Of a stretch of 54,994 nucleotides of DNA, positions 1 to 54,994 are shown piece after piece. Both the position numbers and the translations under genes were made by a program. The notes beneath the pieces are model-generated. The model had not been told where the DNA came from, ran no database searches, and worked only from the letters and a program-made list of their open reading frames with translations. Every line of letters starts with the position of its first letter. The stretch's first letter is position 1. This stretch comes from a virus (taxonomy: Duplodnaviria; Caudoviricetes), in the IMG/VR virus record IMGVR_UViG_3300047352_000276, positions 1 through 54,994 of that record; one strand, written 5' to 3'.

Positions 1-155
1 ATCGCCAACACTTCCGGACCAATCATCTCGACCATACCAATGCCAGTGTTGATGAAGATCGTCGGTTGGGACGAGATCCCAGACTTTCCCAAGCAAAAAA
101 TATACACCATCCGCGCAACCATTGACCAGCCGGACTGCGATATATACCAGACCAT
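1..155. repeat. Terminal direct repeat, copy 1 (circular overlap)
   Basis: 1-155 matches 54840-54994; first 126 nt identical, then 3 mismatches (cag/aaa, tac/tat). Confidence 0.95.
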
Positions 156-549
156 TTATTACCCAGACCCGACAGTCCCACACTACAGAGTTTCAGTCAT
201 CGGCAATGTCGTGATCTGTGAGGCTGCTGTGCCAATAGACTCAAAGCCAGCACCCCACATAATGAGCATACTGATGGATGACTTCGGGTTCAGACCTATG
301 AAGATAACCAACATCACCTCATCGACTCAAGAGTACGGCAAGATTCGTCCGATCGATGAGCGTCTGCGGAAAGAATTCATTTTCCAAATGACCACCCAAC
401 ACAACATCTATTCAGTTGGCAGGTTCGCAACATGGCGACAGATCTTACTGGACGATGTAGTCGACGATGTAAAAGTTGTCGAAGAATTCATTCGGGGGAA
501 GTCTGACTATGCCCGATGGATGCACTCTCAGAAAGGAGAAAATCAATGA
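1..549 (+). CDS. FAD-dependent oxidoreductase/mutase-like flavoprotein, 3' part
   Basis: In frame with the 54450 start via the overlap; IISTIPMP and C-terminal VGRFATWRQILLDDVV resemble UDP-galactopyranose mutase-type flavoproteins. Confidence 0.75.
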   Translation: MANTSGPIISTIPMPVLMKIVGWDEIPDFPKQKIYTIRATIDQPDCDIYQTIYYPDPTVPHYRVSVIGNVVICEAAVPIDSKPAPHIMSILMDDFGFRPMKITNITSSTQEYGKIRPIDERLRKEFIFQMTTQHNIYSVGRFATWRQILLDDVVDDVKVVEEFIRGKSDYARWMHSQKGENQ

Positions 550-1193
550 AAGTGGAACTCGTAAATTATACCTCTGACGCTGTTGACCTGCTGTTGTTCA
601 CCAAGAACACAAGGCTGATGGACGACGAGGATGCCTATGGCAAAATCGCTGGATGGTCTGAAACAAAGAAGCAGGAGGAGCTAGACTACATGCTCCAAAC
701 AATCCGCTCATCTTGGGAATTCATTGACTACACATTCAACATTCGAGATGTCAGTCGTGGGTTCACCCATCAGTTCGTCCGGACTCGCCAAGCCTCATAC
801 GCCCAACAATCTCAACGAACAGTTGACATGTTTGGCTTCAGCTATTACACTCCAGAGCGCATTGAGCAAAACCACGAAGCTCTGGAAGAATATGACAAGG
901 CAATGGCTGACATAGCTGACGCATACCAAAGGCTCCGGAAGTTTGTCCCCGCAGAAGATGCACGTGGTGTCTTGCCGACTAACATCCACACCAACATCGT
1001 CGCGAAGTTTAACTTGCGCACACTGAGCGAGATGGCCAAGTCACGCCTCAGCCCACGAGCTCAAGGTGAATATCAACAGGTGTTCAAGCTGATGGTCAAG
1101 GCTGTTGTCGCGGTGCACCCATGGGCTGATCCTTTCTTGACCCCAACACAGTGGGCCGCACCATCAATGGGAAAGGCTCTGAACAAGCCATGA
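546..1193 (+). CDS. thyX: Flavin-dependent thymidylate synthase ThyX-like protein (divergent)
   Basis: SRGFTHQFVRTRQASYAQQSQR (RxR-X7-S-x-R), AEDARGVLP, NLRTL, AQGEY; ATG 546 overlaps the upstream stop, RBS AGAAAGGAG. Confidence 0.85.
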   Translation: MKVELVNYTSDAVDLLLFTKNTRLMDDEDAYGKIAGWSETKKQEELDYMLQTIRSSWEFIDYTFNIRDVSRGFTHQFVRTRQASYAQQSQRTVDMFGFSYYTPERIEQNHEALEEYDKAMADIADAYQRLRKFVPAEDARGVLPTNIHTNIVAKFNLRTLSEMAKSRLSPRAQGEYQQVFKLMVKAVVAVHPWADPFLTPTQWAAPSMGKALNKP

Positions 1194-1465
1194 GCAAGAA
1201 ATATGAAGATGATCTGATAATCGCTGTGCGGGAAAACAAGAAGCACATGACCGTCAAAGAGATCATGGAGAAGCACAGCCTGAAGGAGCATGAAGTCAAG
1301 TACATCCTTTATAATCCTCATTGCACGTTGCTGGAGGACAAACCAATACCTGTGGACTACGTTGTTGATGATGCTGCGTTTGAGGAGCCTGAAGACTTCC
1401 AAAAAGACGAACGGTCAATAGTCAATGGCTTCAGGAAAGCATTTAAAGGATTATTCGAAAAGTAA
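1190..1465 (+). CDS. Hypothetical protein (possible N-terminal HTH)
   Basis: ATGA overlap with the thyX stop; MTVKEIMEKHSLKEHEVKYILY is HTH-like. Confidence 0.6.
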   Translation: MSKKYEDDLIIAVRENKKHMTVKEIMEKHSLKEHEVKYILYNPHCTLLEDKPIPVDYVVDDAAFEEPEDFQKDERSIVNGFRKAFKGLFEK

Positions 1466-1490
1466 GGATCGTGCTGAGAAAGGAAATGGC

Positions 1491-1979
1491 ATGAATATTT
1501 TCTACCTAGACCACAACCCTGTGGAAGCTGCAAAGATGCATTGCGACAAGCATTGCGTCAAAATGATCCTTGAGACTGCGCAGCTGCTGTGCACTGCTCA
1601 CAGAGAGCTCGATGGTGACTACTGGGCTGACATGGTTGGCTTGTATAAGTCTACCCACAAGAACCATCCGTCTGCTGTTTGGGTGCGCGAGAGCTCTGCG
1701 CAATATTGGTGGGCTTGCGGATTGTATGTCCAGCTTGGTTTGGAATACACAAGACGATACGGCAAGACCCACAAGAGCATGGGTCTGGCTCCATTCTTGA
1801 CAATTTCACCAATGTGGATTGATCGTCTGGCTTGGCGAGAACCGCCTCAGTGCATGCCTGATGAATACAAAACTGACTGCACTGTGGAAGCATACAGGAA
1901 TTATTACAATGGTGCCAAGGCAAGGTTCGCAGCTTGGAAAGACAAGGAGGCTCCAGAATGGTTCGAGACGGTGCAGTGA
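1491..1979 (+). CDS. Pyrimidine-dimer DNA glycosylase/endonuclease V (DenV)-like protein
   Basis: MNIFYLD...CDKHCVKMILETAQLL, THKNHPSAVW, PQCMPDEYK, VEAYRNYY; RBS GAGAAAGGA. Confidence 0.8.
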   Translation: MNIFYLDHNPVEAAKMHCDKHCVKMILETAQLLCTAHRELDGDYWADMVGLYKSTHKNHPSAVWVRESSAQYWWACGLYVQLGLEYTRRYGKTHKSMGLAPFLTISPMWIDRLAWREPPQCMPDEYKTDCTVEAYRNYYNGAKARFAAWKDKEAPEWFETVQ

Positions 1980-2392
1980 TTGTTGACATTGATGGGACGC
2001 TGGCTGATTGTCGTCACAGATTCCATTTGTATGAAGCGAAAGATTATGAAGCATTCAATGCAGCCAGCAAGGATGATGATCCGATTGATGCTGTTGTTGA
2101 TTTGGTGCGCAATCTGCCTAAGTGGACTTGGATTGTAATAATGACCGCTCGGGACGAATCATTCAGAGACGTGACCATGAGTTGGCTCAACATGAATGAC
2201 ATCCCATTCAACCATCTGTTGATGAGGCCAGCAGGTGACAAGCGCAGAGACGACATTGTCAAGCGAGAATTGTTCAATGCCAACTACAAAAAAGAACAAG
2301 TCTGGTTTGCTCTGGAAGACCGCAAAGTCTGCGTTGACATGTGGAGAGATGAGGGCATAACTTGCCTGCAGGTTCAGGAGGGGAATTTCTGA
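1958..2392 (+). CDS. HAD-family phosphatase (like the phosphatase domain of T4 PNKP)
   Basis: DIDGTLAD, TAR, LLMRPAGDKRRDDIVK, EDR..CVDMWR..G; RBS AGGAGG. Confidence 0.85.
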   Translation: MVRDGAVIVDIDGTLADCRHRFHLYEAKDYEAFNAASKDDDPIDAVVDLVRNLPKWTWIVIMTARDESFRDVTMSWLNMNDIPFNHLLMRPAGDKRRDDIVKRELFNANYKKEQVWFALEDRKVCVDMWRDEGITCLQVQEGNF

Positions 2393-2580
2393 TGGAACTT
2401 AGATTGGTCGGCAACGACATTGAATTTGACAGGCAAAAAATTGCAAGGCTTTTTGACCTCAGCCCTGCCCTGCGGATGTCTCTGGAGGAGGCTTTCAAGA
2501 AGTCCAACGAGCACGACGAATCCGTCGATGCAGCATACCAAGAAGGGAGGGCCGAAGGTGAATGGTGGCGTGTCGAATGA
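2392..2580 (+). CDS. Hypothetical protein
   Basis: TGATG-coupled to the upstream gene and ATGA-coupled to the downstream gene. Confidence 0.6.
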   Translation: MELRLVGNDIEFDRQKIARLFDLSPALRMSLEEAFKKSNEHDESVDAAYQEGRAEGEWWRVE

Positions 2581-2873
2581 GCAGTCCTAAAGATCCATCA
2601 GACATTCTGCAAGAGATGGCAGAAACATTCCGAGAGCGGAATAAAGTCTACGGCGACAACTACAAGACCGTCGGAGAAGTGATGATCAGTTTGTTCCCCA
2701 ATGGGGTGCAGCTCAACACAGTCAGCGATTACAACAGCTGGCATCTGTTTGAGTTGATGATCGTCAAGATCACTAGGTTCGCAAACAGCAACCTGAAACA
2801 CAAAGACTCAATTCATGATGCAGCCGTTTATGCGGCCATGGTTGAATATCTCATCAAGGAGGAGAAACAGTGA
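2577..2873 (+). CDS. Nmad1/DUF1599/DUF6378-like protein (nucleotide-modification-associated, MazG-like helical fold)
   Basis: ERNKVYGDNY...MIVKITR...KDSIHDAAVYAAM pattern. Confidence 0.65.
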   Translation: MSSPKDPSDILQEMAETFRERNKVYGDNYKTVGEVMISLFPNGVQLNTVSDYNSWHLFELMIVKITRFANSNLKHKDSIHDAAVYAAMVEYLIKEEKQ

Positions 2874-3547
2874 GCAACATTTTAATCACAGGCACAGGCA
2901 AAGGCTTGGGCAAGGCAATGAAAGAAAAGCTGATCAGCCAAGGCCACAAAGTGATCAGCTTCAATCTTGAGGATGGCAGGGATGTCCGCAGTCCAGACAT
3001 TTCTGACGTCTGGCGTCAGAAAATTGACGTGTTGATAAACAATGCTGGCGTCAACATAATCGATTGGCTGGAAAACTTCGAGGAATCAGACTGGGACAAA
3101 GTCATGGACACCAACGCCAAAGGCATCTACATGATGACCAAGGCTTGCTTGCCAGGACTGATCAAAAGCAAAGGCACAGTCATCAACATCGTAAGCAATG
3201 CAGCCCACATGCCTATGACTTGTTCTTTGGCCTACAATGCGTCCAAAGGTGCTGCCCACATCATGACGTTGCAGATGGCCAGAGAGCTGACCAAGAAGCA
3301 TGGCATAACAGTTTTTGGGATAGCCCCTAACAAACTCTCTGGCACTGGCATGAGTGATGACATCGACAACCAAGTGGTTGCCACTCGTGGCTGGACCAAA
3401 GAGCATGCCCAGCAGTATCAACTCAATGGTCTGTTGACAGGCGAAGAAACGCCACCAGAAAGGCTGGCAGAATTTGTCGCTTTTTTACTTCAATCAAAAG
3501 ATCACCACAAGTACCTGACTGGGTGCATCCTTCCATATGGAGCCTGA
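2870..3547 (+). CDS. Short-chain dehydrogenase/reductase (SDR)
   Basis: TGTGKGLG cofactor motif, NNAG, catalytic Ser and YNASK. Confidence 0.92.
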   Translation: MSNILITGTGKGLGKAMKEKLISQGHKVISFNLEDGRDVRSPDISDVWRQKIDVLINNAGVNIIDWLENFEESDWDKVMDTNAKGIYMMTKACLPGLIKSKGTVINIVSNAAHMPMTCSLAYNASKGAAHIMTLQMARELTKKHGITVFGIAPNKLSGTGMSDDIDNQVVATRGWTKEHAQQYQLNGLLTGEETPPERLAEFVAFLLQSKDHHKYLTGCILPYGA

Positions 3548-3548
3548 A

Positions 3549-4028
3549 ATGAAATTCCAAATTGAACAAATAGCAATCGTCCCGAAAGATCCAATCGCAG
3601 CCAAGAAGCTGTTGTCAGAGATTGGGGCAACTGATTGGGCTGAAGATCACGTTGTCGCAACTGGCAATGTTTTCGGCGTTCGCGACACCAACGAAGCTGA
3701 CTTGTCTTTCAACTATGACCTGTTCTCCGGCAAAGAGTTTGAAGTTTTGGATTATACTTCTGGCCCCAACTGGATTGATTCAAGAGGATCAAGGAACACA
3801 GTCAGCCACCTAGGGATGCATTGCAGTGCAGAAGATCTTGTGCATTGGCGAGCGTTCTTCGCAAACCGTGACATCGAAGTGGCGCAAGAAGTTTTCACCG
3901 ACTCCCACACCAATCCCGTGATTGCAGGAAAACGATCTTACAATTACGTCATATTCGACACGAAGAACATACTGGGCGTTGACCTCAAATTCATCGTTAG
4001 GATAAATAAAGATGCTGATAGTCTTTGA
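3549..4028 (+). CDS. VOC/glyoxalase-fold protein (epimerase-like)
   Basis: IEQIAIV...EFEVLDY..GPNW...SHLGMH pattern resembles methylmalonyl-CoA epimerase-type VOC proteins. Confidence 0.6.
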   Translation: MKFQIEQIAIVPKDPIAAKKLLSEIGATDWAEDHVVATGNVFGVRDTNEADLSFNYDLFSGKEFEVLDYTSGPNWIDSRGSRNTVSHLGMHCSAEDLVHWRAFFANRDIEVAQEVFTDSHTNPVIAGKRSYNYVIFDTKNILGVDLKFIVRINKDADSL

Positions 4029-4548
4029 TCTAGAAACCACAGGTCTGCCCAAAGCGGAAGGTTCTGATCTTGACATGCAGCCCAAGATTATTGAATTCGG
4101 TGCGATCAAGCTTACTGAAGAGCTCATTGAGGTTGATCGCCTTGAATTCTTTTGCAACCCCAAGCACATGCTCGATCCAAAGATCACCAAGATCACAGGC
4201 ATAACAGACGACATGCTCAAAGACCAAAAGCCATTCATCGCACACCTCGACAGATTGAATGAATTCTTTTTGGGAACCAAGCGGATGTTTGCCCACAATC
4301 TTGGCTTCGACAGAAAGATCTTGAAATTTGAGCTTGAGAGGCTAGACAAGGTCACAAGCTTCCCTTGGCCTTATGAGCACACCTGCACAGTTGAGGTTGG
4401 CCAGCGAGTCTGGGGTAAGATGCGCAAGCTGGGCGACATATATGAAGAGCTCTTCGAAGAGAAGATAGAAGGCTCTCACAGGTCAATGAATGATGTTGAA
4501 GCAACGCTCCGGATCATTGATTGGTACGCAAAGGAAGGACACATATAA
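4012..4548 (+). CDS. dnaQ: DEDDh 3'-5' exonuclease (DnaQ/Pol III epsilon-like)
   Basis: FDLETTG, AHNLGFD, HRSMNDV motifs; directly upstream of dnaE. Confidence 0.88.
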   Translation: MLIVFDLETTGLPKAEGSDLDMQPKIIEFGAIKLTEELIEVDRLEFFCNPKHMLDPKITKITGITDDMLKDQKPFIAHLDRLNEFFLGTKRMFAHNLGFDRKILKFELERLDKVTSFPWPYEHTCTVEVGQRVWGKMRKLGDIYEELFEEKIEGSHRSMNDVEATLRIIDWYAKEGHI

Positions 4549-7362
4549 ATGTTGAACCTCAAGACACGCACAGAGTATTCGTTCCGCAAGGCATACGGCC
4601 CCATACAAAAGGTTGTTGAGTGTTTTGAAGACAAGGCTGTTGGAATATGCGACACAGGAACATGGGGCCACGTCGCATTCTCCAAGCACTGCAAAAAGTC
4701 TGGCATCAAGCCTGTGTTTGGTGTTGAGATATCTGTGGTCTTAGATGCCAATGACCGTTCCAAACAAGCCGACAATCCGATGTCATTTCTGGCTTGCAAC
4801 AATGATGGGTTGGCTGAGATATATGAGCTTGTGTCCCGCAGCACATCCAAAGAGAATTTCTACTATTATCCCCGCATAAGCTATTCAGACCTGTTCGATG
4901 TCAGCGAAAACGTGATAATGTTGTCCGGATCGCACCCAGACTGGTCGATGCTTCCTTTGACCAAAAAACACAATCTTTACGTCGAGCTTGGACCAATGAG
5001 CTCTCCGAAGTCAGCTGAGTGGGCTGCTCAAAAAGGCTTCAAGACCATAGCCACCAGCGACAACTTTTATCCCAAGCCATCGGACAAAAAGGCTTACGAG
5101 GTTTTGTGTGGCCGTAACCGTACAGATCGCAGTGGGCCCATGCACATTCTTGATGAGTGGGAGTGGAAGGCTGCTGTGCCTTGGGGGACGCAAGAAGCCA
5201 TCGACAACACCTACAAAGTTGCAGAGCTTTGCAATGCTGATCTGCCAGTTGCGCAGATGATCGCATTTCATTCAAAAAAGACTTTGCGAGAGCTTTGCGA
5301 GGATGGTGCTCCGGCACTGGGCGTTGACCTGAAAGATCCAGTTTATGCGGCTAGGCTCAAGCGAGAGTTGGACATGATTGCCAGCAAGGAATTTGAGGAT
5401 TATTTCTTTGTGATTGCTGACATGATTCGTTACGCCAAAGAGCACATGCTGGTTGGCCCTGCTCGTGGATCTTCTGCTGGTTCTTTGGTTTGTTACCTCA
5501 CTGGCATAACTGACGTTGACCCGATTGTGCACGACCTGTTGTTCGAAAGATTCATCGACATCACCCGAGAAGATCTGCCGGACATCGACATCGACTTTCA
5601 AGATGACCGCAGAGAGATGGTTTTCCAATATCTCAGGGACAAGTACGGTGCAGAAAAAGTTGCACACCTCGGGACGGTCAGCCGCTACAAAGCCAAGAGC
5701 ACAATAGCAGAAGTGGCCAAAGAGCTTGGCATACCCGCATGGGAAGTCAATGACCTGAAAGGTGCGATCATCGAGCGCAGTGGTGGTGACTCTCGTGCTG
5801 CGTTCTGCATCCTCGACACATTCAACGACCTCGACATAGGCAAGGCTGTCTTGGAGAAATTCCCGCAGATGAAAGTTGCGGCAAAGATGGAGAACCACGC
5901 AAGACACGTTGGTGTGCATGCTGCTGGCATTCTGGTGACTGAAGACCCAGTCAGCAAATATTGCTCCGTCAGTGCGCAGACTGGTGCGGCCCAGATAGAC
6001 AAAAAAGACGCTGAAGACCTCAACCTGCTGAAGATTGATGCATTGGGCCTCAGAACACTCTCCGTCTTGCAGGACGTTTTGGATCAGGTTGGTTGGGTGC
6101 GAGACCAGCTGATCAAGTTTCCTCTGGAAGACAAAAAGGCATTCGCAATATTGAATGATGAGAAATATGCAGGCATATTCCAATTTGAAGGCTACGCGCT
6201 GCAAGGTGTGACCAGACAAATGAAAGTGCACAACTTTGAGGACGTTGCAGCCATCACTGCCCTAGCTCGTCCTGGACCACTCAACTCCGGTGGTACGAGC
6301 CAGTTTATCAAGCGGCACATAGGAGCAGCACCAGCGGAATATATGCACCCAATGACAGAGCCAATCACAAAGGTGACTCATGGTGTTGTGGTCTATCAAG
6401 AACAAGTCATGACCATTGGTCGGGAGATAGGCAAGCTGAGTTGGGAAGATGTTTCATTCCTGCGCAAAGCAATGAGCAAGTCTTATGGCAAAGAATATTT
6501 TGACACGTTCTGGGAGAAGTTCAAGGTTGGAGCTGCTGAGAACGGCATACCGGAAGACGTCGCGCAAACAATATGGGACAACATCAACACGATGGGATCT
6601 TGGGCGTTCAACCGCAGTCACGCAATATCTTACGGGATGGTGAGCTATTGGTGTTGTGTCTTGAAGAGCAGGTTCCCACTGGAGTATGCTGCTGCTTGCC
6701 TCCGTAATGTCAAGGATGACGACCAAGCTGTCAAGCTGTTGAGGGAAGTTGTGTCTGAGGGATTGACTTACAAGCCATTCGACAAATTCAAGTCCAAGGC
6801 CAACTGGTCAGTCCAAGACAATGAATTGATCGGTGGGTTGATAGGGATCAAAGGCATCGGCCCCAAAATGGCAGAAGACATAGAAAACAGGCGCAACCTG
6901 TCCCAACCATTGACCCCACGGCAAGAAACCCTGCTGAACACAGGCACGACACCCTATGACGATATTTTTGAGTGCGAAAGGAGATTTGGCCACATCAAGA
7001 AAGATCCCAAAGCCCACAACATCGGCTCAGCCATAACAGACATCCAAGACCTAGACGGGGACAATCCAGGAACATTCGTTTTCTTCGGCAAGCTCAAAGA
7101 GAAGAATTTGAGGGATATGAATGAAGCTGTCAACTTGGCCAAACGTGGTGGTCGCAGAGTTGATCGGAATAACCTTTGGTTGAACGTGACAGCTGAAGAT
7201 GACACTGGCGCAATCATATGCACAGTCGACAGGTTCAAGTACCAAAAGATGGGCAAGCCCATTGTGGAGGATGGAAAGCTGGGTGAATGGTACTTATTCA
7301 AAGGTGTGTTGAAGAATGGGTTCAGGAAGATCTATCTTGAAAAGGTTCGTAAGATGTTGTAA
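4549..7362 (+). CDS. dnaE: DNA polymerase III alpha subunit (family C)
   Basis: PHP-like N-terminus, GPARGSSAGSLV, LLFERF, PDIDIDF, HAAG, KIDALGL, FNRSHA, C-terminal OB fold (EDDTG). Confidence 0.95.
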   Translation: MLNLKTRTEYSFRKAYGPIQKVVECFEDKAVGICDTGTWGHVAFSKHCKKSGIKPVFGVEISVVLDANDRSKQADNPMSFLACNNDGLAEIYELVSRSTSKENFYYYPRISYSDLFDVSENVIMLSGSHPDWSMLPLTKKHNLYVELGPMSSPKSAEWAAQKGFKTIATSDNFYPKPSDKKAYEVLCGRNRTDRSGPMHILDEWEWKAAVPWGTQEAIDNTYKVAELCNADLPVAQMIAFHSKKTLRELCEDGAPALGVDLKDPVYAARLKRELDMIASKEFEDYFFVIADMIRYAKEHMLVGPARGSSAGSLVCYLTGITDVDPIVHDLLFERFIDITREDLPDIDIDFQDDRREMVFQYLRDKYGAEKVAHLGTVSRYKAKSTIAEVAKELGIPAWEVNDLKGAIIERSGGDSRAAFCILDTFNDLDIGKAVLEKFPQMKVAAKMENHARHVGVHAAGILVTEDPVSKYCSVSAQTGAAQIDKKDAEDLNLLKIDALGLRTLSVLQDVLDQVGWVRDQLIKFPLEDKKAFAILNDEKYAGIFQFEGYALQGVTRQMKVHNFEDVAAITALARPGPLNSGGTSQFIKRHIGAAPAEYMHPMTEPITKVTHGVVVYQEQVMTIGREIGKLSWEDVSFLRKAMSKSYGKEYFDTFWEKFKVGAAENGIPEDVAQTIWDNINTMGSWAFNRSHAISYGMVSYWCCVLKSRFPLEYAAACLRNVKDDDQAVKLLREVVSEGLTYKPFDKFKSKANWSVQDNELIGGLIGIKGIGPKMAEDIENRRNLSQPLTPRQETLLNTGTTPYDDIFECERRFGHIKKDPKAHNIGSAITDIQDLDGDNPGTFVFFGKLKEKNLRDMNEAVNLAKRGGRRVDRNNLWLNVTAEDDTGAIICTVDRFKYQKMGKPIVEDGKLGEWYLFKGVLKNGFRKIYLEKVRKML

Positions 7363-47929: not shown

Positions 47930-48290
47930 ATTCCCAATGTTTACAATCACTTGCAGAAGGTTCCCAGTCTCTGGGTTCTCGTCCCCAATCAAAACACGAC
48001 TCTGGAAACGACTATTGTTGTTTGTTTGCAATCACTTGCAAGATTCGTAACCCACGTTCCCAGTCTTTTGCTGATTTTGAACAACAAAAAAATAACCTGA
48101 AATATTCCCTTATAGTAAAGCAAAAAAGGACGGGTCAGAAAACAACTGCACACAAAAGGTTGGTTTCGCTGGGAACGCTGTTGTTATAAAACAATAATTT
48201 TTATTTTTGCTTCCATAACAGCTTTCTTTGAAATTTTCTTGTTTTCTTTTTATTTTTTTGCAGGCATACTCAAAGCTCACTGAGAAAGGA
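47930..48290. other. Non-coding divergence region with short repeats (candidate origin or genome terminus)
   Basis: Strand switch point; TGTTTRCAATCACTTGCA x2, GTTCCCAGTCT x2, inverted CTGGGAAC, T-rich tract. Confidence 0.55.
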
Positions 48291-48296
48291 CACTCT

Positions 48297-48659
48297 ATGC
48301 CTAAAGTTTACGTCGTCAATCGTCCGAGAGAAAACAAGTTTGGGTGGACCCCTGACTTGAGTGATGCATCGCGTTATGGTGCATTGGAGATTGTGTTTGA
48401 GCCCGAGGACAAGCCACAATTTGTCCCAGGACCATCCATCCAAAAAGCTCGGAGGATAATGAAAGATTTCGGGTCAGAGGATTACATCCTGTGGCCAGGA
48501 GGTGGTGACCCTATTGCTGTGATGGTGTGCTGCATGATCGCATCAGAAATGTCACCAGTCGTGCGCATCCTACGTTGGGAGCGTAATTTTGAAGAGGGAG
48601 ACAGGGATCGCCGGAAAGGTTGGTACATGCCTGTTGCCCTCGAAATGAGAAAGGCTTAA
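48297..48659 (+). CDS. Hypothetical protein
   Basis: ATG after TGAGAAAGGA; DLSDASRYG, GDPIA. Confidence 0.7.
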   Translation: MPKVYVVNRPRENKFGWTPDLSDASRYGALEIVFEPEDKPQFVPGPSIQKARRIMKDFGSEDYILWPGGGDPIAVMVCCMIASEMSPVVRILRWERNFEEGDRDRRKGWYMPVALEMRKA

Positions 48660-48660
48660 C

Positions 48661-49251
48661 ATGAAAGAGCAAGTAGATCTGCTTGAGGACGTGGCACCTG
48701 CGTCCAATGAATTAGGTGCAATTTCTGACATGGCTCAAAAGATGTTCAACATTCAAGCTGAGTGTGAAAATCTGGAGATGCTGTTGAAGAATAGAAAGCT
48801 GGATCTAAAAGCAATCGCCGAACAAGACTTGCCTGATTTAATGCAAGAACTGAACATCAAGGAATTCACCCTGACCAATGGTGCCAAGGTGGAGATCAAA
48901 GATGTTATCACAGGCTCAGTCCCCAGTGCAGGTGCAATCGCACGTGCCAAAGGTGACACCCAAGACGAGCTGGCGATACGGCAACAACAATGCTTTGAAT
49001 GGTTGCGCGGCAATGGTGCTGGCGACTTAATCAAGAGCAATGTTGAGGTCCAGTTTGGGCGCAATGAAGATGACGAATGCAATGCCTTCACAGAAGAGCT
49101 GCGCGAACGTCAACTTTATTATAAGCGTGCAATTGGTGTCCATCCGTCCTCACTCAACAGCTTCATCAAAGAGCGTTTGAGCGAAGGCAAAGACATCCCC
49201 CTAGATCTGTTCAGAGTTTACACAGGTCGCACAGCCAACATCAGGAGATAA
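48661..49251 (+). CDS. Replication-module protein
   Basis: LPDLMQE, FEWLR.NG.GDLIK, VHPSSL..FIKE; precedes the SSB-like gene. Confidence 0.7.
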   Translation: MKEQVDLLEDVAPASNELGAISDMAQKMFNIQAECENLEMLLKNRKLDLKAIAEQDLPDLMQELNIKEFTLTNGAKVEIKDVITGSVPSAGAIARAKGDTQDELAIRQQQCFEWLRGNGAGDLIKSNVEVQFGRNEDDECNAFTEELRERQLYYKRAIGVHPSSLNSFIKERLSEGKDIPLDLFRVYTGRTANIRR

Positions 49252-49255
49252 TCTT

Positions 49256-50059
49256 ATGGCGAAGAAAGAATTAGCGAAGAAAGAAGAAAGCAATGGTGTG
49301 TCCATGTCTGTAATGGATATGTGGCTTGAGGATGCAGGGTCAGCCAGCGAGGGAATGTCCAAAGACGACATGATGATCCCACGCCTGTCCATCCTGCAAC
49401 AAATGTCCCCGCAGATCAATAAGCGTGATGGCGCATATGTTGATGGGGCTGAAGCTGGCCATATCTATGACAATGTTGCCAACGAAGTCTATGATGGAGA
49501 AAGCGGGATCACAGTGGTTCCGATCAGTTATCGTCGCGCCCACATTGAGTGGAAAGCCGATCGTGGTGGGTTGGTTGCCGACCATGGCTCAGACAGCGCA
49601 TGCTTGGACAATTGCACTCGTGGCAGTCGCGGTGAATATCTCACCGACGAAGGCAATGAGATTGTTCCCACAGGCGAATATTTTGTGTATGTTGTTGAGG
49701 ACGAAGGGAACTATTCCCCAGCAATGCTCTCAATGAGCAAGTCTCAGCTGAAGCGTGCACGCCAATGGAACTCAATGATCAACCGTCTGCAGGTTCCCCA
49801 TCCACAAGGTGGAGGAGCAATCAATCCTGCGATGTTCTGGAACGCCTACACGCTGTCCACAGTCCCAGAAGAAAATGATCAAGGCTCTTGGTTTGGGTGG
49901 AGTGTGAAGATGAAGTTTGACGCTAAGTCTGGCGGCATCTTGGAGAACAACCCCAATGGTACTGAAATTTATTTGGCTGCACGTGACTTCAAGCAACAGG
50001 TCGCATCTGGTGCCCTGAAGCCAACAGGCCCAGTCAATGACAATGAGGTGCCATTCTAA
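49256..50059 (+). CDS. Putative single-stranded DNA-binding protein
   Basis: PRLSILQ.MSPQ, MSKSQLK.ARQWNS, acidic C-terminal tail NDNEVPF. Confidence 0.6.
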   Translation: MAKKELAKKEESNGVSMSVMDMWLEDAGSASEGMSKDDMMIPRLSILQQMSPQINKRDGAYVDGAEAGHIYDNVANEVYDGESGITVVPISYRRAHIEWKADRGGLVADHGSDSACLDNCTRGSRGEYLTDEGNEIVPTGEYFVYVVEDEGNYSPAMLSMSKSQLKRARQWNSMINRLQVPHPQGGGAINPAMFWNAYTLSTVPEENDQGSWFGWSVKMKFDAKSGGILENNPNGTEIYLAARDFKQQVASGALKPTGPVNDNEVPF

Positions 50060-53512: not shown

Positions 53513-53598
53513 GTAAGCTCTTGGAAACATTGGGAGAAAAATTATTTTCATCAAAATTGAATTTTTTTGTTGCCTTCTCCTGCGACATCAGCGATACT
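53513..53598 (+). promoter_or_regulatory. Sigma70-like promoter P4 with upstream conserved boxes (drives the operon across the junction)
   Basis: TTGCCT(53570)-17 nt-GATACT(53593); upstream box shared with P1. Confidence 0.75.
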
Positions 53599-53626
53599 AC
53601 GATTGTCAACTGAGAAAGGAAATGAC

Positions 53627-54280
53627 ATGAACAACCCAACCTTCGCCCTCGACATCAAATCTCTCGTCGTCAAAGCCTACGTCAGCAGCAAAGTTGCACG
53701 GTCACAAGGCAACGGCGCGATCATCTTCACCTCTGCTGAAGAGCTGCTGGCTGACCGCAACATCACAGGCAAGATCCTTGTGGACGCTTTCAATGAAGTC
53801 TCCCTCAAGACTGTCAAAAAGTTTTCCGACAACAAGACTGCTGCTCGTCGTTACATGGCTGCGATTGGTGGCCTGCACGTCGACCCCACAGGTTGCTGGG
53901 ACACTGGCTGGGACGTGCCCACCTCCAAGCCAACCCCACAGGTCGCTGCACTCCCAGGAATGACACCACTCGGTCTCCCTGCAGACAAGTCAGCGCCAGC
54001 CATCAAAGGTGCTCTCTCCGAGATTGTCGTCACAACCACTGACATCACCCCACCAATGCCAACCAAGGCTCGCGGTGCATTCGCTGGCAAGACAATCCGC
54101 GTGATTGAGCTTGACAATCCTCGCAAGGAAGGCACTCGTGCCCACAAGACATATAGCCTTTACGTCTCTGGTGGCAGCTACGAAGATCTGGTTGCGAACG
54201 CTGCTGGCTGGAGCACCAAAGGTGGCGTCAGAGAAGATGTTGCCCATGACATTAAAAAAGGACGCATCGAGCTGATATGA
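53627..54280 (+). CDS. Hypothetical protein
   Basis: ATG after TGAGAAAGGA; C-terminal NPRKEGT.A...Y...D..KGRI domain. Confidence 0.7.
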   Translation: MNNPTFALDIKSLVVKAYVSSKVARSQGNGAIIFTSAEELLADRNITGKILVDAFNEVSLKTVKKFSDNKTAARRYMAAIGGLHVDPTGCWDTGWDVPTSKPTPQVAALPGMTPLGLPADKSAPAIKGALSEIVVTTTDITPPMPTKARGAFAGKTIRVIELDNPRKEGTRAHKTYSLYVSGGSYEDLVANAAGWSTKGGVREDVAHDIKKGRIELI

Positions 54281-54450
54281 CCTGCAAAGATTGCTATAAG
54301 CCAAAACTCAACGAGCAGGAGATTCGCCTCTTGCTCGTTGCGCTTGATGCTTGTATATTCCCGATTGAGCAATCCGTGCCACAAGCAATAACAACCCATG
54401 CAGCGGCCAAGAGAGCCGAACGCAAACTCAGGAAGATGTTGGAGGAATAA
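54277..54450 (+). CDS. Hypothetical protein (57 aa)
   Basis: Read manually; ATGA overlap upstream and TAATG overlap with the flavoprotein. Confidence 0.55.
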   Translation: MTCKDCYKPKLNEQEIRLLLVALDACIFPIEQSVPQAITTHAAAKRAERKLRKMLEE

Positions 54451-54994
54451 TGGTAGCGATTTATGGAGCAGGTCTGGCAGGATTGCTGGCAGCTAATATG
54501 TTGAGGGGGATGAGCCCAACTGTGTTTGAGGCTCAAGGCTCCCTGCCCAACAACCATGGTGCGCTGTTGCGCTTCCGTAGCGACAAGGCTGGCACAGCTT
54601 GCGGCATCCCTTTCAAGAAGGTGCACGTGACCAAAGCAATCAAGTACGACGGCAAGATCACCACTGAGCCAAACCTGTTCCTGAGCAACATGTATTCCCA
54701 AAAGGTCACAGGCTCAATCATGAGCCGATCCATCAACAACCTCTCCGCAGCATCACGCTACATTGCCCCATGGCACCTGATCAGGGACATGTCCATGGGC
54801 GCAGAAATATCTTACAACATGAGCTTGTCCGAATACTCAATCGCCAACACTTCCGGACCAATCATCTCGACCATACCAATGCCAGTGTTGATGAAGATCG
54901 TCGGTTGGGACGAGATCCCAGACTTTCCCAAGCAAAAAATATACACCATCCGCGCAACCATTGACAAACCGGACTGCGATATATATCAGACCAT
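54450..54994 (+). CDS. FAD-dependent oxidoreductase/mutase-like flavoprotein, 5' part (continues at 1-549; ~312 aa in total)
   Basis: Not in the ORF track. ATG at 54450 after GGAGG; MVAIYGAGLAGLLAA...VFEA is a GxGxxG Rossmann motif; frame stays open into the terminal repeat. Confidence 0.85.
   Translation, partial: MVAIYGAGLAGLLAANMLRGMSPTVFEAQGSLPNNHGALLRFRSDKAGTACGIPFKKVHVTKAIKYDGKITTEPNLFLSNMYSQKVTGSIMSRSINNLSAASRYIAPWHLIRDMSMGAEISYNMSLSEYSIANTSGPIISTIPMPVLMKIVGWDEIPDFPKQKIYTIRATIDKPDCDIYQT
54840..54994. repeat. Terminal direct repeat, copy 2 (circular overlap)
   Basis: Matches 1-155; lies inside a reading frame that continues across the junction. Confidence 0.95.

Follow-up and report, generated by a model that had tools for sequence, protein, structure and literature searches.

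By sequence comparison, the ThyX-family gene of the viral genome analysed here is a functional member of a large, previously undescribed, phage-only variant of ThyX that comes with a fixed flavoprotein partner. The genome is the IMG/VR virus record IMGVR_UViG_3300047352_000276 (54,994 bp, CheckV completeness 100%), the whole of which is referred to as the window, and the gene is the 215-codon coding sequence at 546..1193 on its plus strand, which matches Pfam Thy1 and TIGR02170. We call the phage-only subfamily ThyX* and its gene thyX*. Antibiotics are sought against ThyX, whose flavin-mediated methylene transfer is a textbook mechanism in which Tyr91, Ser88 and His53 are treated as essential. 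A virus-only branch maintained by selection without Tyr91 and His53 would mean either that the roles of these residues are dispensable given a helper, or that the chemistry ends differently. With moderate confidence, we consider ThyX* to be a working enzyme, namely a divergent, partner-associated synthase of deoxythymidine monophosphate (dTMP).

Active site of the window protein

We assign the start of thyX* to the ATG at 546, which overlaps the stop codon of the upstream partner gene as ATGA and has a Shine-Dalgarno sequence, AGGAG (534..538, plus strand), 7 nt to its 5' side. An ATG at 516 was considered and rejected, as the homologues align from the Met at 546, the one with AGGAG. Residues 4–193 of the protein align to the entire Pfam Thy1 profile (PF02511; positions 1–191 of 191, E = 7e-40, 137.3 bits against a cut-off of 24.8), and NCBIfam TIGR02170 thyX, a curated equivalog model, gives 101.4 bits against a cut-off of 87.9. 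With both scores above their cut-offs, an annotation pipeline would therefore name the protein thymidylate synthase.

Residues are numbered here as in T. maritima ThyX, on the basis of an HMMER alignment to chains 1kq4, 3n0b and 8rep. The window protein and T. maritima ThyX (TM0449, 1kq4, 8rep; PF02511) have the same domain over their whole length, with a likeness of only ~25–30% in sequence (E = 1e-8). They have in common, in the site for deoxyuridine monophosphate (dUMP), Gln75, Arg78, Arg80, Ser88, Arg90, Arg147 and Arg174, so that the dUMP-binding residues Arg90, Arg147, Arg174 and Gln75 are all present, and, on the flavin side, Glu58, Asn163 and Arg165; Thr55 is replaced conservatively by Ser. 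Unlike T. maritima ThyX, the window protein is without His53, His59, His79, Asn85, Tyr91 and His178. The segment IRSSWEF (residues 53–59; 702..722, plus strand) stands where T. maritima has H-E-T-P-F-E-H, with Ile at the position of His53 and Phe at that of His59. The stretch RTRQASYAQQSQRT (residues 79–92; 780..821, plus strand) covers the RHR-x7-S-x-R-Y region, in which R78-H-R...N85-E-L-S88-G-R90-Y91 of T. maritima has become R-T-R...A-Q-Q-S-Q-R-T: the RHR motif keeps both arginines around a Thr in place of His79, Asn85 is Ala, Glu86 and Gly89 are each Gln, and the Ser and Arg of Ser88-x-Arg90-Tyr91 are followed by Thr. His178 is replaced by Arg. The preliminary description had reported these non-canonical motifs (RTR...S-Q-R-T, and IRSSWEF for H-x-S/T-x-x-E); the HMMER alignment confirms the motifs, and the residue mapping on T. 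maritima ThyX finds that earlier alignment essentially right.

What these residues do in the canonical enzyme is described in PMC11940539 and PMC8316439. Tyr91 and Ser88 are there called 'strictly conserved' and critical in T. maritima ThyX, flavin oxidation is ~1000-fold slower in Y91 mutants, and consumption of the flavin carbinolamine is slowed by S88A, R90A and Y91A. His53 is a stacking residue, lying on the flavin in the reduced enzyme, where Tyr91 and Asn85 hold it, and on the folate in the ternary complex; free formaldehyde can also be used by ThyX (same sources).

ThyX* as a clade

A search of 1.84 billion cluster representatives returned 3244 relatives at E ≤ 1e-3 and 98 at E ≤ 1e-30, and 120 of the best 150 representatives were aligned, the 30 under 190 residues being left out. 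The equivalents of His53 and Tyr91 are both absent in 111 of the 120 and both present in eight, with Tyr alone present in one. The 111 make up the clade, which is defined by criteria that include the absence of Tyr91, so that this position is never Tyr by definition; it is occupied by Val, Thr, Ile, Ala, Leu or Met in 107. The position of His53 is Ile, Val or Leu in 108 members, that of Asn85 is Ala in 101, that of His59 is Phe in 107 and that of His178 is Arg or Lys in 106. More variation is seen at His79 (Thr in 74, His in 21, Ser in seven, Asn in six, other residues in three) and at Ser88 (Ser in 61, Thr in 28, Ala in 21). Retained in nearly all 111 are Arg78 (110), Arg80 (108), Arg90 (105), Arg147 (109) and Arg174 (107), as well as Gln75 (107), Glu58 (109) and Arg165 (108), at an identity across the clade of roughly 40–55%. 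Since His53, Asn85 and Tyr91 interact in canonical ThyX, the clade has therefore lost the whole interacting triad. That flavin and nucleotide binding might nevertheless be kept, as the preliminary description had suggested, is supported by the presence of the binding residues in the window protein and throughout the clade.

In a quick maximum-likelihood tree of 130 rows, which is unrooted (a more careful tree search did not finish), a branch with a Shimodaira-Hasegawa-like approximate likelihood ratio (SH-aLRT) of 99 splits 113 rows from 17. On the larger side are the window protein, those of Cronobacter phage Ss1, E. coli phage ECML-117, Pseudomonas phage PB1 and Rhizobium phage RHph_TM61, and 108 representatives; on the smaller side are 13 sequences with canonical-type motifs together with P0080, P0119, P0134 and P0139. 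The alignment and phylogeny for which the preliminary description had called thus find the losses of His53 and Tyr91 shared by most close homologues and set on a separate branch, and by this comparison the substitutions are the hallmark of a large clade and not peculiar to the window gene. They are common in homologues, but no proven thymidylate synthase was found carrying them.

Members of the clade are encoded by cultured phages, among them PB1 (ORF59; Pbunavirus), ECML-117 (Wifcevirus), Xanthomonas phage Carpasina, Ss1 and RHph_TM61. Their proteins are 40–53% identical to that of the window, have the same substitutions and fall on the same side of the SH-aLRT 99 branch, and their loci share with the window the upstream partner and mostly the same module of HAD/DUF6378, exonuclease and family-A DNA polymerase (PolA) genes. 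The ratio of nonsynonymous to synonymous substitution rates (dN/dS) of thyX* is 0.05–0.09, with a median of 0.063, over seven pairs with relatives, taken from a set of 16 ungapped close homologues from which two identical ones and seven with saturated dS were left out; thyX* is accordingly under strong purifying selection.

Variation at the 'conserved' sites is also seen in some ThyX proteins that do not belong to the clade. Those compared come from viruses of Gram-positive bacteria and archaea (Bacillus LY1, Mycobacterium PBI1, Clostridium phiCP13O, Acidianus ATSV and Gordonia GordTnk2); ThyX of PBI1 reads RQR...STRF, and those of LY1 and GordTnk2 have Ile at the position of His53. Among viral ThyX proteins, neither His53 nor the middle His of RHR is therefore as universal as the wording of the literature suggests.

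A flavoprotein partner upstream of thyX*

The partner gene is split over the window ends. Its N-terminal part, which has a GxGxxG Rossmann start, lies at 54450..54994 (plus strand; phrog_4828 profile positions 7–194) and its C-terminal part at 1..549 (plus strand; positions 147–326), and in the relative L006 the gene is complete and unbroken at 312 codons. Window bases 1–155 repeat at 54840–54994 with one mismatch, which gives a Gln/Lys difference in the partner protein; because of this 155-base terminal repeat, the genome is that of a circularly permuted or terminally redundant phage. The record's class in IMG/VR is 'linear', despite the repeat.

The partner matches no Pfam family above cut-off (NAD_binding_8 is reached only at E = 0.087), the partner homologues of Ss1 and ECML-117 have no family match, and among the 120 matches listed, out of 2226 homologous proteins at E ≤ 1e-3, none has a Pfam domain. 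The nearest Atlas clusters are 95–99% viral. For an AlphaFold 2 model with a mean predicted local distance difference test (pLDDT) of 86.5, the best PDB folds found by Foldseek are UDP-galactopyranose mutases (UGMs; E ~1e-11), followed by protoporphyrinogen oxidase and renalase, with query-normalised TM-scores of 0.57–0.67. By its modelled fold, the partner is predicted to belong to the UGM/amine-oxidase group of Rossmann flavoproteins. The profile of the partner gave no significant UGM match among PDB sequences (4dsg, E = 0.24). The GxGxxG start is shared with the UGM group, and the stretches ISTxP, YxPxxxxxYR and, at the C terminus, GRFxxWR align with T. cruzi UGM; at 312 residues the partner is shorter than the members of that group with their 360–510.

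Of 80 close IMG/VR loci, 77 have the partner upstream of thyX* and the other three start at thyX*. It is likewise upstream in 75 of 80 diverse loci (40–58% identity to P0047), the five exceptions having 1–1231 nt upstream, and in 10 of 11 loci from metagenome-assembled genomes (MAGs), where in the remaining one the contig ends at thyX*. The partner is thus present wherever the upstream DNA is long enough. The control for this co-occurrence is a genus-level comparison in cultured phages, made on genus counts rather than record lists, since IMG/VR scans that started from P0062 and from the canonical P0138 returned no loci to serve as a canonical set. In the cultured-phage database, tblastn matches to ThyX are found in 579 records and matches to the partner in 362, with equal counts for Pseudomonas (292 each), Escherichia (27 each) and Serratia (9 each) and similar ones for Rhizobium (10 and 8). 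Most other ThyX matches are in Gordonia, Mycobacterium, Microbacterium, Bacillus, Clostridium and Streptomyces phages, none of which appear in the list of ten organism names for the partner. Unlike canonical ThyX, ThyX* always comes with a second flavoprotein, whose gene overlaps thyX* directly in the window and in PB1, where it is ORF65, is separated from it by five small open reading frames (ORFs).

Downstream of thyX*, nearly all relatives have a PNKP-type HAD phosphatase and a DUF6378-like protein, then the exonuclease and the polymerase. In Rhizobium phage RHph_TM61 (203 kb, unrelated backbone) the pair is also together, 1.9 kb apart, and adjoins a HAD protein, a dUTPase and a ribonucleotide reductase, and the 20 kb of this genome that were examined contain no match to the window's exonuclease or polymerase. 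This speaks against mere hitch-hiking of the pair in one replication module.

Occurrence in viruses and other thymidine-related enzymes

One genome per prokaryote species (n = 185,579) was scanned with the hallmark peptide of the clade, a single pattern that can miss members without it. It matched 38 stretches, of which 11 encode ThyX* relatives, all on MAG contigs, and it found no isolate genome with a ThyX* relative. The 11 loci have the same phage module wherever the DNA reaches far enough, and their contigs are probably phage contigs mis-binned into MAGs. Some of these contigs are 42–59 kb long, and the phyla to which they are assigned vary widely (Bacilli, Alphaproteobacteria, Elusimicrobiota, Dehalococcoidia and others). 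Unlike canonical ThyX, also named FDTS, ThyX* was found only in viruses, that is, in phages and phage-like MAG contigs.

Five genomes were examined for other enzymes of thymidine synthesis or modification: the window and the complete genomes of Ss1, ECML-117, PB1 and RHph_TM61. Each of the five has exactly one Thy1 match, and none has a ThyA domain (Thymidylat_synt, PF00303) or a thymidylate kinase domain. Tet_JBP (PF12851), ParB_N (PF02195) and AlkB-like oxygenase (PF13532) domains, of which divergent members could be missed, are absent from all five, and no 5-HMUDK or aGPT-Pplase homologue was recognised.

Thymidine hypermodification in Pbunavirus

A 2025 bioRxiv preprint (PMC12191111) reports that the DNA of Pbunavirus phages F8 and 14-1 contains modified thymidines with masses of 362 and 390 Da, one new nucleoside per phage, in which the modification is sugar-linked. 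The derivatives replace ~1/4 of T, in TG context, leaving ~3/4 as ordinary T. Both phages had earlier been thought unmodified, and the authors state that they have no known modification genes; the words 'ThyX' and 'thymidylate' are absent from the text. By mass arithmetic, 362.3 corresponds to 5-hydroxymethyldeoxyuridine (5-hmdU) plus tetritol minus H2O, or to deoxyuridine (dU) plus pentose plus H2 minus H2O, and 390.3 to 5-hmdU plus pentose minus H2O, or to dU plus hexose minus H2O. The PB1 annotation names F8 homologues of both the thyX* and the partner gene, and 14-1 has ThyX*.

Native nanopore reads of Pbunavirus DNA are poor and are rescued by PCR (10.64898/2026.07.08.737226, 2026 preprint), and Wifcevirus is reported to resist restriction-modification systems although it has no known protection mechanism (BASEL paper). 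Phage T-dioxygenases with NTC or NTG preference oxidise 17–35% of T (PMC13229309). PMC9151335 and PMC13750652 contain nothing on DNA modification of the phages considered here, and PMC13326640 deals with ThyA homologues making 5-hydroxy-dCMP and with true sugar mutases, not with ThyX. No biochemical study of the ThyX* branch, and no link from this branch to the Pbunavirus modification, was found in the literature searched.

Interpretation and alternative explanations

The comparisons above establish to which family ThyX* belongs, which residues it has lost and how large its clade is, that it is under purifying selection, confined to viruses and accompanied by the partner, and that these genomes have no other recognisable thymidylate synthase; what it acts on, what it releases and what the partner may contribute, we infer. 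ThyX* would bind dUMP against the reduced flavin, as canonical ThyX does, and would transfer a one-carbon unit to C5 of the uracil, with dTMP as the most likely released product. It would be the only thymidylate synthase of the phage and would feed the adjacent replication module (HAD phosphatase, DUF6378 protein and split PolA). The partner would perhaps take over part of the role of the lost residues, either by reducing the flavin with NAD(P)H or by supplying or handling the carbon donor. We arrive at a dTMP synthase because of the membership in the ThyX family and the intact dUMP site, because ThyX* is the sole candidate thymidylate synthase in these genomes, and because its nucleotide-metabolism neighbours, such as the dUTPase and ribonucleotide reductase of RHph_TM61, are normal ones. 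The same reading is suggested by the ordinary state of most Pbunavirus T, where the TG-specific modification of a part of T indicates a step on DNA, and by the fit between a generic need and a generic, widely conserved module. Several points weigh against a dTMP synthase. Tyr91 is missing in 111 of 111 clade members, this being one of the defining criteria, and Ser88 is Ala in 21 of them; no cellular genome among the 185,579 species genomes scanned was found to rely on this branch for its thymidylate synthase; and Pbunavirus has both the pair and hypermodified T, without a recognisable ThyA-type hydroxymethylase or T-dioxygenase. In addition, the thymidylate synthases known to us need no second protein.

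A strong alternative, to which we give tentative credence, is that ThyX* and its partner are instead the nucleotide-level entry to thymidine hypermodification. ThyX* would then attach a unit of one carbon or more to C5 of dUMP without completing the hydride transfer, so that a non-methyl product, for example 5-hydroxymethyl-dUMP, would be phosphorylated, incorporated by the phage polymerase and elaborated on DNA, while ordinary T would come from the host pool or arise as in phiW-14 or SP10. The clade-wide loss of the Tyr91/His53/Asn85 network, which canonical ThyX uses for the flavin-oxidising half-reaction, counts in favour of such an enzyme, as does an obligate flavoprotein whose nearest folds, the UGMs, use reduced flavin without net redox change; the virus-only range of ThyX*, the fit of the F8 and 14-1 masses to 5-hmdU plus tetritol or pentose minus water, the poor native nanopore reads of Pbunavirus rescued by PCR, and the presence of the pair in PB1 with no ThyA, Tet_JBP, ParB_N or AlkB-type match all point the same way. 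We know of no ThyX-family hydroxymethylase, however, and as most Pbunavirus T is unmodified and a single new nucleoside is reported per phage, a pool-level route would need extra steps at the level of DNA. Specificity for TG or TC already has a precedent in T-dioxygenases acting on ordinary T (PMC13229309), and a divergent dioxygenase could escape Pfam. The alternative further implies that thousands of environmental phages modify their thymidine, which no evidence suggests, and its link to Pbunavirus is guilt by association through one related lineage.

Applied to that lineage, the same idea would have ThyX* and its partner carry out the first step, still missing, on the way to the sugar-linked hypermodified thymidine of Pbunavirus, which we regard as possible while leaning against it. 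In one version ThyX* would be a flavin-dependent dUMP C5-hydroxymethylase. In a bolder version it would be a reductive C-alkylase, with an aldose on the flavin in place of formaldehyde; 362 and 390 also equal dU plus pentose plus 2H minus H2O and dU plus hexose minus H2O. The ThyA-family dUMP 5-hydroxymethyltransferases (of phages M6, ViI and others; PMC8989533) have an unrelated fold; a functional analogy may exist in that a thymidylate synthase-like enzyme would supply the C5 carbon of a hypermodified thymidine, and in that the gene likewise adjoins nucleotide-handling genes. The preliminary description had proposed that methylenetetrahydrofolate chemistry is altered, so that something other than a methyl group might be installed. 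The first half of this is supported by the clade-wide loss of the folate-stacking and methylene-transfer residues His53, Asn85 and Tyr91; the support for a non-methyl product is circumstantial, because it comes from the obligate partner, the restriction to viruses and the hypermodified T of Pbunavirus.

It had also been proposed that the enzyme acts on another nucleotide. The ThyX homologue PolB methylates UMP, and the active-site loop of ThyX* is changed at the positions of Tyr91, Glu86 and Gly89, so that dCMP, UMP or some other pyrimidine nucleotide might be imagined as the one that is methylated. We consider it unlikely: the arginines that recognise uracil and 5'-phosphate in T. maritima ThyX are retained (Arg90, Arg147 and Arg174 in 105–109 of 111), nothing in the neighbourhood hints at cytosine or ribonucleotide chemistry, and the modification reported for Pbunavirus is on T. 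Still more improbable to us is that ThyX* is a dead or purely regulatory relic, with the flavoprotein as unrelated cargo of a vertically inherited replication module. Residues called essential are indeed missing, and many of the loci in which the pair co-occurs share a single conserved module with exonuclease, polymerase and DUF6378 protein; a relic would, however, hardly show a dN/dS of ~0.06 or substrate-binding arginines that are near-invariant over a clade of such divergence, and the two genes again occur together in the 203-kb Rhizobium phage, with no match to the window's exonuclease or polymerase in the 20 kb examined.

Should ThyX* and its partner turn out to initiate hypermodification, ThyX* would be the first enzyme of the ThyX family to make something other than a methyl group, and thymidine modification would be widespread in marine phages, including the window phage, since the pair occurs in thousands of environmental contigs. 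Pbunavirus phages are widely used in Pseudomonas phage therapy, and the origin of their modification, to which no biosynthetic gene has been assigned, becomes a two-gene question that can be tested in Pbunavirus itself.

Neighbouring genes and genome context

All genes described in this section for which a strand is given lie on the plus strand. Following thyX* are a phrog_624 protein with the PHROGs name 'DNA binding protein' (1425..1979, plus strand), present in most relatives, and the PNKP-type HAD phosphatase (1934..2392, plus strand; Pfam HAD_PNKP, 1.5e-31), which follows thyX* in most relatives. The DUF6378-like protein (2562..2873, plus strand) matches the C-terminal part of phrog_4889 (1.1e-30), its DUF6378 score of 23.5 bits being under the cut-off of 27.1. 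The split family-A DNA polymerase (4012..7362, plus strand; exonuclease 4012–4548, phrog_192, 3e-38; polymerase 4549–7362, phrog_405, 4e-246) closes the conserved module. The HAD and DUF6378-like proteins, separate in the window, are fused in PB1 ORF57 (L164, 8114–9154) and in ECML-117, where the fusions are annotated 'polynucleotide kinase/phosphorylase'. In the Ss1 homologue the C-terminal half is DUF3310 instead of DUF6378-like; DUF3310 occurs in the T7 gp1.7 nucleotide kinase (PMC12846349).

Between the DUF6378-like gene and the exonuclease lie a short-chain dehydrogenase (SDR, FabG-like; 2870..3547, plus strand; adh_short, 1.7e-35) and a 163-residue protein that is always found with it (3537..4028, plus strand; no Pfam or PHROG match). 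This cassette is present in 27 of 80 close relatives, absent in 43 and undetermined in 10, and it occurs in the window and in Wifcevirus ECML-117 and not in PB1. The SDR was considered as an essential member of the pathway and rejected, being absent in 43 of the 70 close loci where its presence can be judged. If the DNA is modified, the cassette might tailor a sugar or polyol.

A further conserved ORF of ~217–237 codons lies at 53567–54280, between a helicase gene and the partner gene; it has 136 homologues and no Pfam or PHROG match, and its AlphaFold 2 model (pLDDT 60) was too poor for a structure search. The window phage is uncultured, with a genome of ~55 kb, and its first 4 kb had no megablast match in the phage database; its relatives come from marine metagenome sources such as Tara. 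Its genome encodes a terminase, a portal protein, the split family-A DNA polymerase, a primase and helicases. At 48228–50059, immediately upstream of the gene for the primase, three genes in a row encode proteins of the Pam3 gp32-, gp33- (DUF7307) and gp34-like Pfam families.

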